Assembly (NCBI GenBank): GCA_049967655.1
Contig: JBMFSH010000033.1
Span: forward strand, 1 to 28,257
Source of the DNA: Acidobacteriota bacterium
GTDB lineage: Bacteria; Acidobacteriota; UBA4820; DSQY01
Reading direction: 5' to 3'
Length of the DNA stretch: 28,257 nucleotides
Shown here: positions 3,843 to 17,589 of the stretch, one piece after another
Layout: every line of letters starts with the position of its first letter
How positions within the stretch are numbered: position 1 is the stretch's first letter
Made by a program: the position numbers and the translations under genes
Notes under the pieces: model-generated
Told to the model about the DNA's origin: nothing
Database searches by the model: none
Seen by the model: the letters and a program-made list of their open reading frames with translations, nothing else

Positions 3843-4045
3843 GTCGCTCGCTGGCGCTCGCTCTCCAAGAGGGAGGCTCCGCCCCCCTCTTGGCGCTGCG
3901 CTCGCCGGGGGCTCGCTCCGCTGAACTCCTCGGGGAGAGGTTGCGTTGCAGCCGACGTGAAGTCGGCTTCGCGCGTGGTCGCTCGCTGTCGCTCGCTCTC
4001 CAAGCAAGAGCTCCTGCGCCTCATCGCGGGTGGCACCTTCCGCCA
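3843..4045 (-). repeat. Two tandem units of a structured intergenic repeat, each ending in TGGAGAGCGAGC-N4-GCGAGCGAC on the minus strand
   Basis: 3843-3869 and 3978-4004 are 26/27 identical. A 13-bp hairpin lies at 3865-3893. The same end motif occurs at 9393-9414 and 9646-9671. Confidence 0.8.
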
Positions 4046-4064
4046 GTCTGATGTCTTGCCGGAC

Positions 4065-5693
4065 TCAATAGCTCTTCGGGCTCTCGCTGTTGCTCTGGGG
4101 AGGTAGCTTAAACTCATCGGGCCGCTCCTTGACGACCTCGCGCAGCCACTCCTCGGGGTAGCCCAGCTCCTGCGGCTCGCCCTTCTCATCCTGCACGTAG
4201 CCGTCGTTGTACTTGGTGAAGAGGTCCGCCGCCAGCTCCTGCCAGCGCGCGAAGACCTCCTCGCCGGCGCCCACGCTGTAGTCCGTGAGGAACCGCTTGG
4301 CCCGCGCGGGGTCGCTCTTCATCATGTCCAGCGCCGTCTTCTCGACGGCCGGCTGGAGGGCCAGGAAGTTTCCCTCCAGCTCCCGCTGGACCTTCACGAT
4401 GTCCTTCACCATATAGCTGTATTTGAGTTGGGCGTAGTTGGCCACCAGGTTGAAGACCCACCACGCCGAGTCCCACGAGAAGCGGCGCAGGTTGCCTCGC
4501 CCGAAGGCGGGCGGCACTTCCGAGATGCCCGCGTAGAGAGGGAAGTAGCAGCTCGTGTAGGTGTCGTCCACGCCGTACCACAGCACGCCGCCCACCGGGT
4601 CGGGCAGGAAGGAGCGCATCTGGGCCACGTAGGAACAGCCCGTCTGCTGGGTCGAGATGGGTCGCTCCCAGGCGTAGGTCTGCCCGTCCAGCGTGAAGGT
4701 GATGGGCCGGTCCCTCAGGGGCGAGCCGAAGGGCCCCGCGTCGATCCCCTTGGTCATGTCCAGCGGCGTCCCCTCGTAGTGGTCGCGCATGAGCGCCATC
4801 ACGTCCTTCACCGAGAGCTTCTGGTCGGCCTTGATCCAGAGCGGGTAGGGCTTAGCCCCGGCCACCCCGCGGTTGCGGTCCATGGAGAGGTGAAGCGAGG
4901 GCGCGGCGCGCCGGAAGATGGACCAGACGCGCGTGGAGGTGTAGCGCAGCTTCTCCGGCGTTGAGGGGCAGTAGGCGTGGCAGAAGCGGAAGGGGCCGTC
5001 GGTCTTGGGGTTGTAGTAACCGTGCGCGATGGCGAAGGAGATGACGTCGGTGGAGTAGAGGCAGTTCGCGGGGTCGTGCAGGGGAAAGCTGTCGATGCGC
5101 GACTTGTTGGCGTGGGCGCAGATCATCCCGTCGGGCACCCGCTCCGCGACCCAGAGCGCGCCCTTCACCCCGTCGCCGCGGCCGATCATCTCCAAAATCC
5201 ACGCCTCCTTCGGGTCGGCGATGGAGAAGGTTTCGCCCGTGGAGCCGTAGCCGTACTGGGCCACGAGCTCCGTCATGACGGCGATCGCCTCGCGCGCCGT
5301 CTTGGCGCGCTCCAGCGCGATCTCCATGAGCGGCCAGTAGGGGATGCCCTCGCGCTTGTCCTGGAGCTCCAGGCGGCCGTCGAAGGTGGTCTCGCCGATG
5401 GCGAGCTGGTGCTCGTTCATGATCCCGCACACGGCGTAGGTGTGGGGCACCTGGGGAATGGTCGCCCGGAGGCGGCCGTGCCAGTCCCTGATCTCCAGCA
5501 TCTCGCCCGGCTTGTGGTCCGCCGCCGGAATGGAGCGAAGGATCGGGTGGAACTCGCCGTCCACCGAGTAGGTGATGATCGTGGAGCCGTCCTTCGAGGC
5601 TCCCTTTGTCACGAGGATGTTCGTGCAGCCGGAAGCCGGCCTCGCGACGCACGCCGCCAGCAGCACCCACAGGAGCAGCATTCCCTTCCGCAT
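4065..5693 (-). CDS. Secreted dipeptidase, peptidase family C69 (Ntn-hydrolase)
   Basis: Signal peptide followed by the N-terminal nucleophile Cys (ASG|CTNILVTKGASKDGS). Motifs MNEHQLAIGETT, ALERAKTAREAI, RDHYEGT, WERPIS. Confidence 0.9.
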   Translation of the reverse strand: MRKGMLLLWVLLAACVARPASGCTNILVTKGASKDGSTIITYSVDGEFHPILRSIPAADHKPGEMLEIRDWHGRLRATIPQVPHTYAVCGIMNEHQLAIGETTFDGRLELQDKREGIPYWPLMEIALERAKTAREAIAVMTELVAQYGYGSTGETFSIADPKEAWILEMIGRGDGVKGALWVAERVPDGMICAHANKSRIDSFPLHDPANCLYSTDVISFAIAHGYYNPKTDGPFRFCHAYCPSTPEKLRYTSTRVWSIFRRAAPSLHLSMDRNRGVAGAKPYPLWIKADQKLSVKDVMALMRDHYEGTPLDMTKGIDAGPFGSPLRDRPITFTLDGQTYAWERPISTQQTGCSYVAQMRSFLPDPVGGVLWYGVDDTYTSCYFPLYAGISEVPPAFGRGNLRRFSWDSAWWVFNLVANYAQLKYSYMVKDIVKVQRELEGNFLALQPAVEKTALDMMKSDPARAKRFLTDYSVGAGEEVFARWQELAADLFTKYNDGYVQDEKGEPQELGYPEEWLREVVKERPDEFKLPPQSNSESPKSY

Positions 5694-5822
5694 CGTCTCA
5701 CCCCATCGTCAAGGCGGCGGCGCCTCCCGCCCGCCGAGTGGCCATCCTAGCACGGGCGGAAAAGAAGGAAGCAGGGAAGGTAGTGCCCCAGATTCCGCGA
5801 TGGAGGTATAACGCTTTTCATG

Positions 5823-6204
5823 CCTGTCCAAAATAGAGCGCCTTGCCGGCTCCGAGCCACGGCTGGGTCTAGGCCGCGCCATTGGCGCGGCGCTGGGGGC
5901 CAGGTCCGGGCGCGTCCACGCTCGCGTGGACGCGCTCCGGCCGCAGGCCCTCCGCCGCCCTTCGGGCGCCAGCCCCAGTTGCCTGGTGGTTGCGGTCCCC
6001 CCACCCTCCAAGGGTGCGCCGGCGGCGACGGACCTCCTGCTTCGTCAGCTTTCGGCGTCCGCATCCTCAGCGTACAGGAAGTACGCTTGCGGTGCGGCCG
6101 CCTCACCTTCCTCTCATGAGGCCCATCGGCGCCGGAACGCGCCTTCCTCCGCTTCGCTCCGGAAGGCAAGCCCCGCAAGTGCGAGTTAGTTTTATTTTGA
6201 CAGC
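5823..6204. mobile_element. Second MITE-like element nested inside the first
   Basis: Ends CCTGTCCAAAATA ... TATTTTGACAGC form an imperfect inverted repeat, flanked by CATG on both sides (5819-5822, 6205-6208). The interior is hairpin-rich. A related end (19/22) lies at 28150-28171. Confidence 0.5.
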
Positions 6205-6217
6205 CATGAACGCCTTT

Positions 6218-6309: not shown

Positions 6310-6414
6310 GCGCGAAATGGCGATCGCGGAATTGGGGAGTGCAGATTGAAGAACGCAGAGAAGTTCGAAGGCAGGCTTTCGTCGCGGTCCTCCTTCGACG
6401 GTCTCCCCCCCGTC

Positions 6415-6454
6415 TTACTCGCCTAATTGCTTAATCGCCTACTCACCTATTCGC
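6415..6454. repeat. Degenerate 8-bp tandem repeat (5 units, YTAATCGC-like)
   Basis: TTACTCGC CTAATTGC TTAATCGC CTACTCAC CTATTCGC. Same family as the arrays at 11253-11514. Confidence 0.7.
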
Positions 6455-9059: not shown

Positions 9060-9319
9060 AGGCCGGGCCTCTTCAAACGTCAGCGGCACGGCCTGTGCCC
9101 TGCCGGAGCATGGTGCCCACGGCAGGCTGGCCCGGCTCCTTTCGAGAAGGGTCCAATGAGATCACCGGCTCTCTGGCCGGTCAGGCGGGGTTTGACTGGC
9201 TGCGCACTCCAGCAGGGTTGAGCATCCTCGGGTATCGGTCCAAAGTCTGCGGAAGGCCAGCGTTGGGTTGAAGTTCACCGCCTGGCCTGGGCACCGCCTG
9301 CCGCCATGCCCTCGCCCGC

Positions 9320-9810
9320 TGCGCGGGGCTCGCTGCTCCTCTCCGCCCTTGCGCGGGAAGACCTCTGAGCGGGGGAGCCTCCCCGCTCCCCCTCGCTCGC
9401 AAGCTCGCTCTCCAGAAGGGACCTCGGCCGGTCCCTTCCGGCGGATGCTTCGCATCCTGCTTGCCCTTGCCCTTGCGTAAGGAAGCCTCTGGCTGGGGGA
9501 ACTCCCCTTCCCCCAGCTCCCCTCGCCGCGCCGCTTCGCGGCATGCCCCTTCGCCCTGCCACGCCCTGTCTATCCGTGGATGGCGCGCTTATCGACGTTC
9601 AGTGCGGCCTCCTTGAGGACTTCGCTCAAGGTGGGATGGGCGTGGGTCGCTCGCGCTGCTCGCTCCCCAAGGAGGGGCTCGGCCGCCCCTCCTCGGCGTG
9701 CCCCCGGCTGTCGCCAGGGGCCCTGCTCTTCCCTGCCCTCTCGCGGGTGGCCCTCTGGCGGGGGAGCCTCCCCGCTCCCCCGCGCCCCCTTCGCCTTGCC
9801 ACGCCCGCTC
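9320..9810 (-). repeat. Three tandem units of the structured repeat family downstream of lpdA
   Basis: Identical 24-mer GCGGGGGAGCCTCCCCGCTCCCCC at 9369-9392 and 9758-9781, with a degenerate third copy near 9494-9514. 30-nt hairpins with identical loops at 9412-9441 and 9667-9696. End motifs at 9393-9414 and 9646-9671. Confidence 0.85.
9570..9645 (-). pseudogene. Displaced duplicate of the lpdA 3' end ([24 protein letters not shown])
   Basis: 66/76 identical to 9811-9886. 42 bp are perfectly identical (9604-9645 vs 9845-9886) and all 10 differences are synonymous. No start codon. Confidence 0.93.
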
Positions 9811-11208
9811 TTAGCCGTGGATCGCCCTTTTGTCGACGTTTAAGGCGGCCTCCTTGAGGACTTCGCTCAAGGTGGGATGGGCGTGGCAGGTTCTGGCGAT
9901 GTCTTCGGCGCTGCCACCGAACTCCATGACGGCGACGGCTTCGGCGATCATGTCGGAGGCGCGCGGCCCCACGATGTGGACGCCCAACACCTTGTCGGTC
10001 TCGGCGTGGGCGATGACCTTGGTCATGCCCTCCTCGCTCCCGAGGCTCTTGGCGCGGCCGTTGGCCTTGAAGTAGAACTTGCCGCTCCTCACGGGGATGC
10101 CCTGCTGTTTGCACTGCTCCTCGGTGAGGCCGACGCAGGCCAGCTCGGGATGGGTGTAGACCACGTTGGGGATGGCGCCGTAGTTGACGCGGCCGGGCTT
10201 GCCAGCCAGCAGCTCGGCGAGGGCCACCCCCTCCTCCATGGCCTTGTGGGCGAGCATGGGGCCACGGATGAGGTCGCCGATGGCGTAGACGCCGGGCAGG
10301 TTCGTGCGATAGCCAGCGTCCACCTTGACGCGGCCCGCCTCCTCCAGCTCCACGCCGGCCTCGCGGATACCGGCGGCGGCACTGTTGGGCCTGCGTCCGA
10401 CGGCCACGAGGAGACGGTCGCAGGTCAGGCTCTCGGCCTCGCCCTTGTCGTTCTGGAAGCTCACGGTGACCTTCTCGCCCTCGATGGCGGCGCCGCTCAC
10501 CTTGCAGTTGAGCTTGAAGACCATGCCCTGGGCCTTGAGGGCGCGCTCTAGGAGCGTGGACATCTGGGCGTCGGCGAAGGGGGCCACGCGGGGGAGGAGC
10601 TCCACCACCGTGACCTTGGCGCCGAGGCGGTTCCAGACGCTGCCCATCTCCAGGCCGATGGCGCCGGCTCCGATGACCACGAGGCCCTGGGGCACCTGGT
10701 CGAAGGCGAGGGCCTCGGTGGAGGTGACCACGCGCACCCCATCGAAGGGGAGGAAGGGGAGCTGCACCGGCGCGCTGCCCGTGGCCAGCACCACCGCCTT
10801 GGCGGCCATCTCCCTCTCGCCCTCACCGTCCTGCACCTGAACGCGGTCCGGCGCCTTGAGGGTGGCCGTCCCCTTGATCACCGCCACCTTGTTCTTCTTC
10901 ATCAGGATGGCGATGCCGTCGGTGAGTTCCTTCACGATGGAGCCCTTGCGGGCCATCATCTGGGGGAGGTTGAGCTTCACCGAGGCGGGCTCGATGCCGT
11001 GCACGGCGAGGCCGTGGCGCGCCTGGTGGAAGAGCTCGCTCGATTCGAGCAGGGCCTTGGAGGGGATACAGCCCACGTTCAGGCAGGTGCCGCCCAGGGC
11101 GGCGTCCTTCTCCACCAGGGCCGTCTTGAGGCCGAGCTGGGCCGCGCGGATGGCGCAGACGTATCCCCCCGGCCCCGCTCCGATGATGATCACGTCATAG
11201 GATTCCAT
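9811..11208 (-). CDS. lpdA: Dihydrolipoyl dehydrogenase (E3)
   Basis: GAGPGGY FAD motif, [13 protein letters not shown] redox disulfide, GAGAIG NAD motif, C-terminal HPTLSE. RBS GGAGG before ATG 11208. Confidence 0.97.
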
Positions 11209-11252
11209 GAATGGCCCTCCTTCAAATGAGGTGTGCGAAGTCATGAGGGGAA

Positions 11253-11514
11253 GCTATTGGGCGATGAGGCTATTAAGCTATGAAGCGATTAAGCTATGAA
11301 GCGATTAAGCTATTAGGCGATGAAGCTATTAAGAAAAGATGAAGCGAGAAGGCGATCGGGGGAACAGTGCGGCGACGGCACGGGCGGGAGCGGGCCGGAC
11401 TGGCCTGCTCGCCCGTGAACCCGTGATCCGTTCTCGCCTCGCTTTTTCGTGTCATCGCTCAATCGCCCAATTGCTCAATCGCTCAATTGCTCAATCGCCC
11501 AATCGCTCAATCGC
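11253..11514. repeat. Two inverted arrays of 8-bp tandem repeats between sucB and lpdA
   Basis: 10 units of GCKATKRR (11253-11332) and 8 units of the reverse-complement type TCAATCGC (11451-11514). Confidence 0.9.
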
Positions 11515-11533
11515 GCCTCGCCCATTCGCGTCT

Positions 11534-12955: not shown

Positions 12956-12978
12956 GCGCGATCGCTCCTTCTAAGACG

Positions 12979-13078
12979 GTGGAGGGTGGAGGGTGGAGAG
13001 TGGAGAAAGGCCGTGGAACCTGCGCCGGCCATGGTTCTTCTCCTTCCCCCTCCACCCTACACTCTCCACTCTCCACTC
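12979..13078. repeat. Two inverted arrays of 7-bp tandem repeats between sucA and sucB
   Basis: (GTGGAGR)x4 at 12979-13006 and (TCCACYC-like)x4 at 13051-13078, the second abutting the sucA stop. Confidence 0.88.
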
Positions 13079-15859
<2,781 letters not shown>

Positions 15860-17405: not shown

Positions 17406-17553
17406 CCACCACCACGACACCAAGGCACCAAGGGCTGGAGGAAGGCGGAAGGAGGAAAGCACACCACAGAGGCGCAGAGGCACGGAGGATTTGGGATTTG
17501 GGAAAACCCCACTCTCCACCCTCCACTCTCCACTCTTCACCCTCCACCCTCCA
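17406..17553. repeat. Patchwork of short 7-8-bp tandem repeats
   Basis: CACGACACCAAGGCACCAAGG, GGAGGAA/GGCGGAA x3, CACCACAGAGGCGCAGAGGCACGGAGG, GATTTGG x2, (TCCACYC-like)x6 at 17508-17553. Confidence 0.75.
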
Positions 17554-17589
17554 ACGAACCAAACGGGCGGGGCCAAAGCCCCGCCCGTT
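17554..17589 (-). terminator. Probable terminator after spoVG
   Basis: 12-bp perfect stem AACGGGCGGGGC/GCCCCGCCCGTT (17562-17589). The U-tract on the minus strand is weak (TTTGGTT). Confidence 0.6.

Follow-up and report, generated by a model that had tools for sequence, protein, structure and literature searches.

A repeat with a target-complementary arm between duplicated gene ends in one Acidobacteriota family looks like an undescribed, sequence-programmed DNA insertion that leaves genes unbroken

Several described systems resemble, each in part, the structure reported here, a folded noncoding body (E) that lies, preceded by a short arm, between two copies of the 3′ end of lpdA in a 28,257-nt stretch of an Acidobacteriota genome (the window). 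Closest are the insertion sequences of the IS200/IS605 family (IS608, ISDra2), whose Y1-HUH transposition involves subterminal hairpins, a base-paired choice of target by a guide 5′ of the hairpin and a single-stranded DNA (ssDNA) circle (PMC6006769, PMC5934647); E has hairpins and an arm, a putative guide. In IS608, however, a tetranucleotide guide pairs with bases upstream of the cut and nothing is duplicated, whereas the arm of E is ~10 nt long, pairs mainly 3′ of the junction and accompanies 25 to 130 nt of carried target. Furthermore, IS200/IS605 elements hold a Y1 TnpA gene, often with TnpB, between their ends and make no target duplication, while E has no open reading frame (ORF) inside or beside it and no linked TnpA or TnpB, and is flanked by a long duplicate in most assessable copies (87 of 125). 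IS608-type elements favor the lagging-strand template (PMC6006769), a bias that E does not share: 11 of 19 matches lie on the G-rich strand and, with a weak skew and a small sample, a replication-strand bias was set aside. The IS608 guide with engineered extensions of 8 to 13 nt provides a precedent for base-paired choice of an ssDNA target (PMC5934647).

Class 3 TnpA-Y1 (Quentin et al., PMC6006769), reported in Acidobacteria with high-copy atypical structures, shares with E the CnGA at the hairpin feet; neither tail duplication nor a guide is described there, which would set E apart. Insertions with long target duplication (Furuta et al., PMC2853133) resemble E in their long, variable direct repeats (>30 bp), in an insert without a mobility gene and in the position of some at gene ends or tRNAs. 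Those inserts are kilobase-sized restriction-modification genes, however, whereas E is noncoding, and they have no shared noncoding body, fixed end motif or complementary arm. At lpdA as well, the repeat exceeds 30 bp and occurs once in the empty allele. The Ssn/NTS CGTC-type hairpins (PMC11893778) are dispersed folded ssDNA repeats like E, and Ssn genes in the Acidobacteriota family that harbors E are flanked by CGTC repeats of their own. The left module of E (G-tract, 3-nt linker, G/C hairpin) is laid out as a purine-motif triplex would be, like the TMECO/BoxC/PIT motifs (PMC4666352), although in TMECO the blocks stand in the opposite order, the stems measure 9 nt and a target copy is not reported.

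Integrative elements that target tRNA or other genes, with a replacement 3′ end on attP, also keep the gene whole and leave the displaced end downstream, with an identical core followed by divergence. E likewise brings a 3′ end that restores the target gene, but it does so in ~240 bp, with no integrase between attL and attR, with many unrelated targets per body and with its specificity apparently in the arm. The GTAG or CGTC foot and the cognate nuclease gene flanked by the repeat that mark REP/RAYT and Ssn/NTS are not found with E, and its alignment reveals neither the terminal inverted repeats nor the short fixed-length duplication of a MITE. In a diversity-generating retroelement, differences are confined to template adenines and a reverse transcriptase (RT) lies nearby; at lpdA, 2 of the 10 differences fall on adenines of the displaced copy (sense strand; GCA, GGA), all are silent, and no RT lies beside the copies. 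E. coli tRNA-linked repeats are a possible further comparison. No description of this architecture was found in the open-access literature, and within that coverage we regard it as undescribed and new in its anatomy.

The gene concerned closes a sucA-sucB-lpdA run (ORF list, Pfam), and the features around its end are given in Table 1. As the first-pass annotation of the window had noticed, the lpdA tail is doubled, with a period of 241 bp; the 75-nt copies, 9885-9811 and 9644-9570 on the minus strand, have an identical 24-residue translation. Identity begins one base before the codons, at 9886 and 9645, and holds for 42 nt, beyond which 10 substitutions in exactly the codon pairs listed earlier are spread across eight codons, every one of them silent; were the changes neutral, the chance of this would be 4e-7 (5e-6 with transition weighting). 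The displaced tail directly follows the end motif GCGAGCGAC (9654-9646), again as annotated. Two further observations stood in part. The common 21-mer described after each stop is present, but it is offset by one, the post-stop spacers being 4 nt (in-use tail) and 3 nt (displaced tail), and it represents the start of the element itself, made up of the 10 nt that reverse-complement the junction together with the conserved G-tract. Similarly, of the repeat unit placed after each stop, bodies were indeed found, but what lies downstream of the displaced tail is a start remnant followed by two tail-less bodies; such remnants also follow the lpdA stop in three relatives (G002, G003, G014).

Table 1. 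Features at the 3′ end of lpdA (window positions)
Feature	Position	Strand	Basis or remark
lpdA (dihydrolipoamide dehydrogenase), target gene	9811..11208	-	ORF; Pyr_redox_2 and Pyr_redox_dim Pfam matches
Target junction, putatively read by guide	9879..9888	-	first 8 nt of duplicate and the 2 nt upstream of it (9888-9887)
In-use tail (D'), 24 codons and stop	9811..9886	-	5′ part of proposed mobile unit
4-nt spacer, stop to guide	9807..9810	-	sequence
Guide arm	9797..9806	-	exact 10-nt reverse complement of 9888-9879
Left module: purine tract, 3-nt linker, G/C hairpin	9758..9792	-	intrastrand-triplex-like layout, triplex putative
Variable middle hairpin	9697..9726	-	alignment, fold
Right covarying hairpin, GnCnGA loop	9667..9696	-	covariation
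End segment	9646..9666	-	closes in GCGAC at fixed element|tail junction
Displaced tail (D), synonymous variant, noncoding	9570..9645	-	sequence comparison
Second guide arm and G-tract start	9546..9566	-	remnant of earlier occupant, same site
Second body E, divergent subfamily, without tail	9395..9542	-	profile match E 7e-20; near-complete
Third body E, 3′-truncated, without tail	9315..9394	-	profile match E 1e-15

A chimera assembled from two strains is contradicted by four other genomes and by metagenome contig L194, in which tail, element and tail follow one another at this very codon; in addition, a contig from a separate sequencing run covers 9570-9690 (element end and displaced tail) and joins to 9259, none of the contigs listed spanning the whole stretch. 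A comparison of lpdA 3′ regions among relatives, proposed with the annotation, revealed occupied, partial and empty sites among 20 loci. Tail-element-tail was found in the genome of the window (G000) and in G016, G017, G018 and G020, four genera in all; cut-off or partial bodies remain in G005 and G010 and a start remnant in G014, the body is absent in nine loci, and the tail lies outside the locus in three. An integrase-bearing island between the tails occurs in none of the 20. In G018, the displaced tail continues into sequence that is found after the stop in the empty G006, which argues that the displaced copy is resident at its far end and that the element-side segment travels with the element.

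Both lpdA tails are of allelic origin. The AAA-AGG-GCG block of the in-use copy is the working tail of congener G002 and the AAG-CGC-GCC block of the displaced copy that of congener G001, in support of the earlier proposal that both evolved as functional lpdA; among four congeners, the last 24 codons carry 7 to 9 silent codon differences in five of six pairs, and in each of those five pairs the tail window has the highest or joint-highest divergence of the gene. The in-use tail had also been taken as the incoming one, on account of atypical codons, an argument that finds no support here: both tails hold codons that are rare in the lpdA body (TTA 0, AAA 1 and AGG 3 for the in-use tail; GCA 0, GAT 1 and GGA 4 for the displaced one), and the closest congener has the in-use block. 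Both hold rare codons and the G002 tail resembles a recombinant of both G000 haplotypes, so that either tail may be the incoming one. Across sites, 31 tail pairs (one further pair was skipped, and three rows were misframed or had an indel) showed 67 silent versus 21 replacement differences, with a dN/dS of ~0.10; 15 pairs were identical, and some displaced tails showed 5′ decay (L008, L113). By the silent excess, the identical pairs and the decay, displaced tails are young, nonfunctional copies of coding alleles.

The body itself measures ~150 nt and contains two hairpins that covary strongly: of 22 pairs predicted, 15 show two-sided changes. In the stems, the paired cells amount to 99% and 96%, with many two-sided changes, against 0 of 500 shuffles. 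G-U intermediates are few. Of 98 middle loops, 42 are C(GNA)G and 11 GNRA, with no UNCG, and since GNA triloops mark stable ssDNA hairpins, the loops of E look like those of ssDNA. In a tree of 62 bodies with the arms removed (30 changes, versus a minimum of 20 and 48 when shuffled; short alignment, 16 of 58 branches open), bodies cluster by site within a genus, while at the lpdA, radical SAM, CCG and thiolase sites the clade of the body varies from genus to genus, which makes bodies and arms modular.

E is a dispersed element of one Acidobacteriota family. Where a single tail-carrying mini-element had been read at lpdA, the unit belongs to a large family whose targets are many and unrelated (at least 20, with no common core beyond a GC-rich start). 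An iterated profile of the body gave 19 matches on 12 contigs of the genome, 7 of which are flanked by a direct repeat that begins at the element's last base (scores of 58 to 198; 10 of 1000 random pairs reach 40). The targets in this genome are the ends of lpdA, thiolase, asd, aldo-keto reductase and radical-SAM genes and of a tRNA and, in antisense, the start of the CCA-adding enzyme gene. With loci from relatives and metagenomes added, the distinct near-full copies number 139, 14 of them at contig edges; the duplicates of the 87 among 125 assessable copies, a count that takes in orthologues, tandem copies and one own-genome row of element-element likeness, are copies of the local gene or tRNA end, and 38 copies have no long duplicate, 16 of these lying inside another repeat family whose junction their arm also matches. 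Nearly all units are sense-oriented and lie just past a stop or a tRNA end. In most copies the unit spans 186 to 280 nt, with duplicates of 24 to >130 nt, which bears out the suggested unit of ~240 bp (gene tail plus structured repeat) without an attached integrase. With a covariance model, matches were obtained in 8 of 10 further family genomes and in none of 140 genomes from elsewhere in the phylum; scanning GTDB with a pattern yielded 30 loci, each titled as an Acidobacteriota-type metagenome-assembled genome, and metagenomes gave 41 loci, 3 of them chance matches without a body. The left-hairpin pattern had 0 matches in viral contigs.

Each copy also carries a target-specific complementary arm, which the first-pass annotation had missed; specificity seems to reside in the element's own sequence and not in an att core. 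At the head of every copy stand ~10 nt that reverse-complement the junction where that copy lies (about -2 to +9), in a fixed register two bases before a conserved G[GT]C-GA[AG]GGGG. Complementary runs of at least 6 nt occur in 48 of 63 units, versus 15% of 3658 cross-site pairs, and runs of at least 8 nt in 36 of 63, versus 4.6%, figures for which the register was picked by best fit within a few bases on GC-rich targets (null match at +1/+2 of 0.7 to 0.8) and which, like all guide counts here, are overstated by the nonindependence of orthologous and tandem copies. Among held-out metagenome units, 10 of 16 reached at least 7 nt, versus 0.9% of 226 cross pairs (±1 slack), and 6 of 16 failed; under a strictly fixed register, runs of at least 5 nt were found in 8 of 19 only, because one-base slips and tRNA registers break it. 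The match is limited to about -2 to +9, with background beyond +10 (15 protein-gene sites, selected on +1 to +4). Among 27 distinct cases, it takes in the last upstream base in 22 (10.8 on average under permutation) and both upstream bases in 15 (3.1), or 14/15 and 10/15, respectively, with one row per site; since these bases lie outside the duplicate, the arm reads the target and is more than a stem within the unit. In 28 cases the two tails are unlike within their first 10 nt; the guide is the better fit to the in-use junction in 20 of them and to the displaced one in 2, with 6 ties. Guide and target covary: two silent lpdA changes in G016 are mirrored in its guide, and arms change with their targets between genera at lpdA (G016), radical SAM and thiolase. 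Where a guide match occurs twice in one tail, element ends are joined to either site (L059/L115/L191; L172). In tRNA units, the arm is longer (up to 19 nt) and in another register, spans the T arm and covers bases that are absent from the displaced copy.

Two further bodies occur besides E, giving three unrelated or sister bodies (E, T and F) in this family. Body T, found in 23 of 24 family genomes and 0 of 5 outside, has, like E, a tRNA-arm-body-tRNA-end arrangement at Leu, Lys, Trp and other tRNAs. It is unrelated in sequence to E; in the genome of the window it lies at C2:81750-81935, C4:67140-67325, C5:29264-29601 and C39:19502-19690 (tRNA-Lys, -Trp, -Leu), and tandem arrays of up to four occur in congeners. 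Body F, in 18 of 24 family genomes and 1 of 5 outside, has E's right hairpin and, among the matches listed, is often reversed right after CCA or the stop, before the arm; the fullest form reads tail, reversed F, inverted copy, body, tail. A copy of F at window positions 3847-4070 (minus strand), with a C69-type peptidase-like ORF on one side and the start of an ABC transporter on the other, has two GCGAGCGAC ends and lacks a duplicated tail, and another (G000:C1:86690-86981) lies between exact 74-nt repeats of a gene end.

The window holds other repeats as well. A ~390-nt repeat 'B' (5816-6210), with ~16-nt terminal inverted repeats and many copies in the genome (67 BLAST rows), is itself targeted by the guide element in G000, G001, G003 and metagenomes. 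A ~140-nt MITE-like repeat occupies both contig ends (1-143 and 28170-28257; 66 to 67 BLAST rows genome-wide), inverted pairs of 7- to 8-nt tandem arrays are found between genes (11250-11337 and 11438-11522; also 6410-6454, 12975-13093 and 17514-17557), and a secreted ORF (600-2096), which we take to be DUF3300-like, ends in a 16-residue (48-nt) repeat present in six copies.

No mobility gene was found beside E copies among 96 ORFs compared with Pfam (95 of 118 clusters plus lpdA, leaving out own-genome singletons and a few short ones) and 110 ORFs compared with NCBIfam (100 out of another 141 clusters, with 10 earlier unknowns) at 1e-12, with the exceptions of an IS481 about 1 kb away (L197) and a XerD (L200); the search that the annotation had suggested, for an HUH, tyrosine recombinase or RT gene, did not yield a mover. 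A GTPase, the conserved neighbor of the tRNA-Gly units, was set aside among the flanking genes. The genome contains no autonomous form (E start, ORF, E end), no match to PF01385 (TnpB) and no class 3 TnpA motif pattern as tabulated in the paper on that class. RAYT-like Y1 genes are present in 23 of 25 family genomes, and no E ends were found in 32 Y1 loci, nor at small GIY-YIG (Ssn) genes, of which 13 loci carry their own CGTC repeats. In congeners, Ssn-like GIY-YIG genes are flanked by 120- to 170-nt CGTC-type structured repeats (L263, L265, L266, L287, L288), and orphan copies of these repeats occur in the genome of the window, where the gene is absent. Neither the two IS110 genes nor the five tyrosine recombinases (an integron integrase, XerC/D and two others) showed linkage to E; the integron integrase scores above the TIGR02249 cutoff and lies at a contig end (G000:C37, L157:1045-2220). 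Two group II RT fragments are present, and in G000:C14:1-1601 (L151) a group II intron 3′ end has inserted immediately upstream of a RAYT-like Y1 gene. Passage between strains could be by way of a ComEC gene. A 10.5-bp phasing of unit lengths, suggested by the first dozen, vanished on 44 units (Rayleigh p ~0.5). A cleave-and-rescue scheme, in which a recoded tail would be immune to its own guide, was rejected: it is the in-use junction that the arm matches, and in 15 of 31 pairs the two tails do not differ at all. Rfam gave two chance matches far under the gathering score.

We propose, with a probability of about 50%, that the lpdA duplicate is a non-autonomous, guide-directed ssDNA element, consisting of tail, guide and body and moved in trans. 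The unit would comprise the replacement tail D', a spacer, the ~10-nt guide and the ~150-nt folded body; as ssDNA, the guide would pair with the junction, i.e., the last ~2 nt of the upstream gene part and the first 8 to 9 nt of the tail. Acting in trans, an enzyme that is most likely of the HUH type would bind the folded body and cut and rejoin at both guide-pairable places, one in the gene at its junction and one at GCGAC|tail. Excision would restore the empty gene and free a circle, and insertion into the empty allele of another cell or strain would yield gene-D'-guide-E-D, the gene keeping a working end from one allele while the other allele's end is left behind. We infer the ssDNA state, the circle, the cleavage chemistry, the enzyme class and the direction of tail exchange; such a scheme would account for the silent-only differences, the tandem arrays and the fixed junction. 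By analogy, E most plausibly works like IS200/IS605. Against this guide-directed reading count the lack of a linked enzyme, the lack of the replication-strand bias known from IS608-type elements, the pairing mostly downstream of the junction (in IS608, with bases upstream of the cut), the different register of the tRNA units and the held-out misses; nor does a one-ended model predict the two-ended forms, with a reversed second element at the tail's right border.

These forms suit a template-switch or hairpin-capping insertion, a direct-inverted-direct triplication whose tails would be refreshed by homologous recombination and transformation, which we consider unlikely though still the most serious competitor. 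In one event, a target segment of 25 to 130 bp, capped on either side by structured single strands (reversed F on the right border, E or T on the left), would give D'-rcF-rc(D)-E-D, the palindrome eroding to a stub of ~10 nt, and the arm would be a scar or closing stem instead of a guide. Such triplications are a known mutational outcome; the fullest two-ended form is the best support for it, and reversed F lies just before E or T in several loci. Moreover, D'/D identity in L010 ends exactly where reversed F begins, L300 retains a degenerate inverted copy of an entire 23-nt tRNA end, and protein unit C27 keeps a 20/24 inverted match. Yet the arm's match stops sharply near +9 without fading and tracks lineage-specific target changes at sites common to several genera, most E units have no F, and body cores differ between genera at one site while the junction base stays the same. 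An RNA-mediated route, in which the unit would be excised from a transcript like a small intron, with the arm as internal guide sequence, and return in trans by reverse splicing or reverse transcription, seems to us quite improbable. Orientation does follow transcription and not replication, the sense bias and the position past stops or tRNA ends would fit, the RT fragments are there, and the element ends in GAC/GAT, as group II introns do. That bias is also predicted by selection for intact genes, however, and one site, at the CCA-adding enzyme gene, is antisense to a gene start; no group I/II catalytic core reached the Rfam gathering score, G-U intermediates are few, and the loops are of DNA type.

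The targeting of tRNA T arms and the replacement 3′ ends, the classic integrase pattern, together with the tyrosine recombinases of this genome, would speak for a miniature att-type element or for scars left at att sites by tyrosine-recombinase islands, a reading that takes in the use of folded ssDNA in the integron or Xer manner. We hold this rival, already weak, to be very improbable: the many targets have no common core, no island lies between the lpdA tails, unit lengths are not phased, and the element end lacks the GTT that is the attC crossover consensus. Least probable of all, in our judgment hardly credible, is a plain MITE- or REP-like repeat that landed after stops, with duplications produced by later host recombination alone or by assembly. 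The copies without a long duplicate would fit it, but nearly half of those sit in another repeat whose junction their arm matches, there are no terminal inverted repeats and no fixed short duplication, duplicates begin at the element's last base, the arm is site specific, and independent assemblies agree. The element is real, and it is neither an ordinary att scar nor an ordinary MITE.

On the guide-directed reading, one may go a step further and speculate, as we do with somewhat less than even confidence, that this is a natural programmable system in which an interchangeable folded ssDNA body, any arm of ~10 nt and a captured tail home base-exactly into any gene or tRNA, leave it undisrupted and swap gene-end alleles between strains. 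The sequence rule makes the mover searchable, and E may, once that mover is known, turn out to belong to the HUH world as a non-autonomous branch. Should the landing site be set by the arm, this would be a compact DNA-guided integration, directed by 10 nt, precise to a single base and leaving the target gene intact, something achieved to date only by engineering IS608 in vitro. A class of orphan "long target duplications" at the ends of genes and tRNAs would thereby be explained, and the element would drive allele exchange locally.
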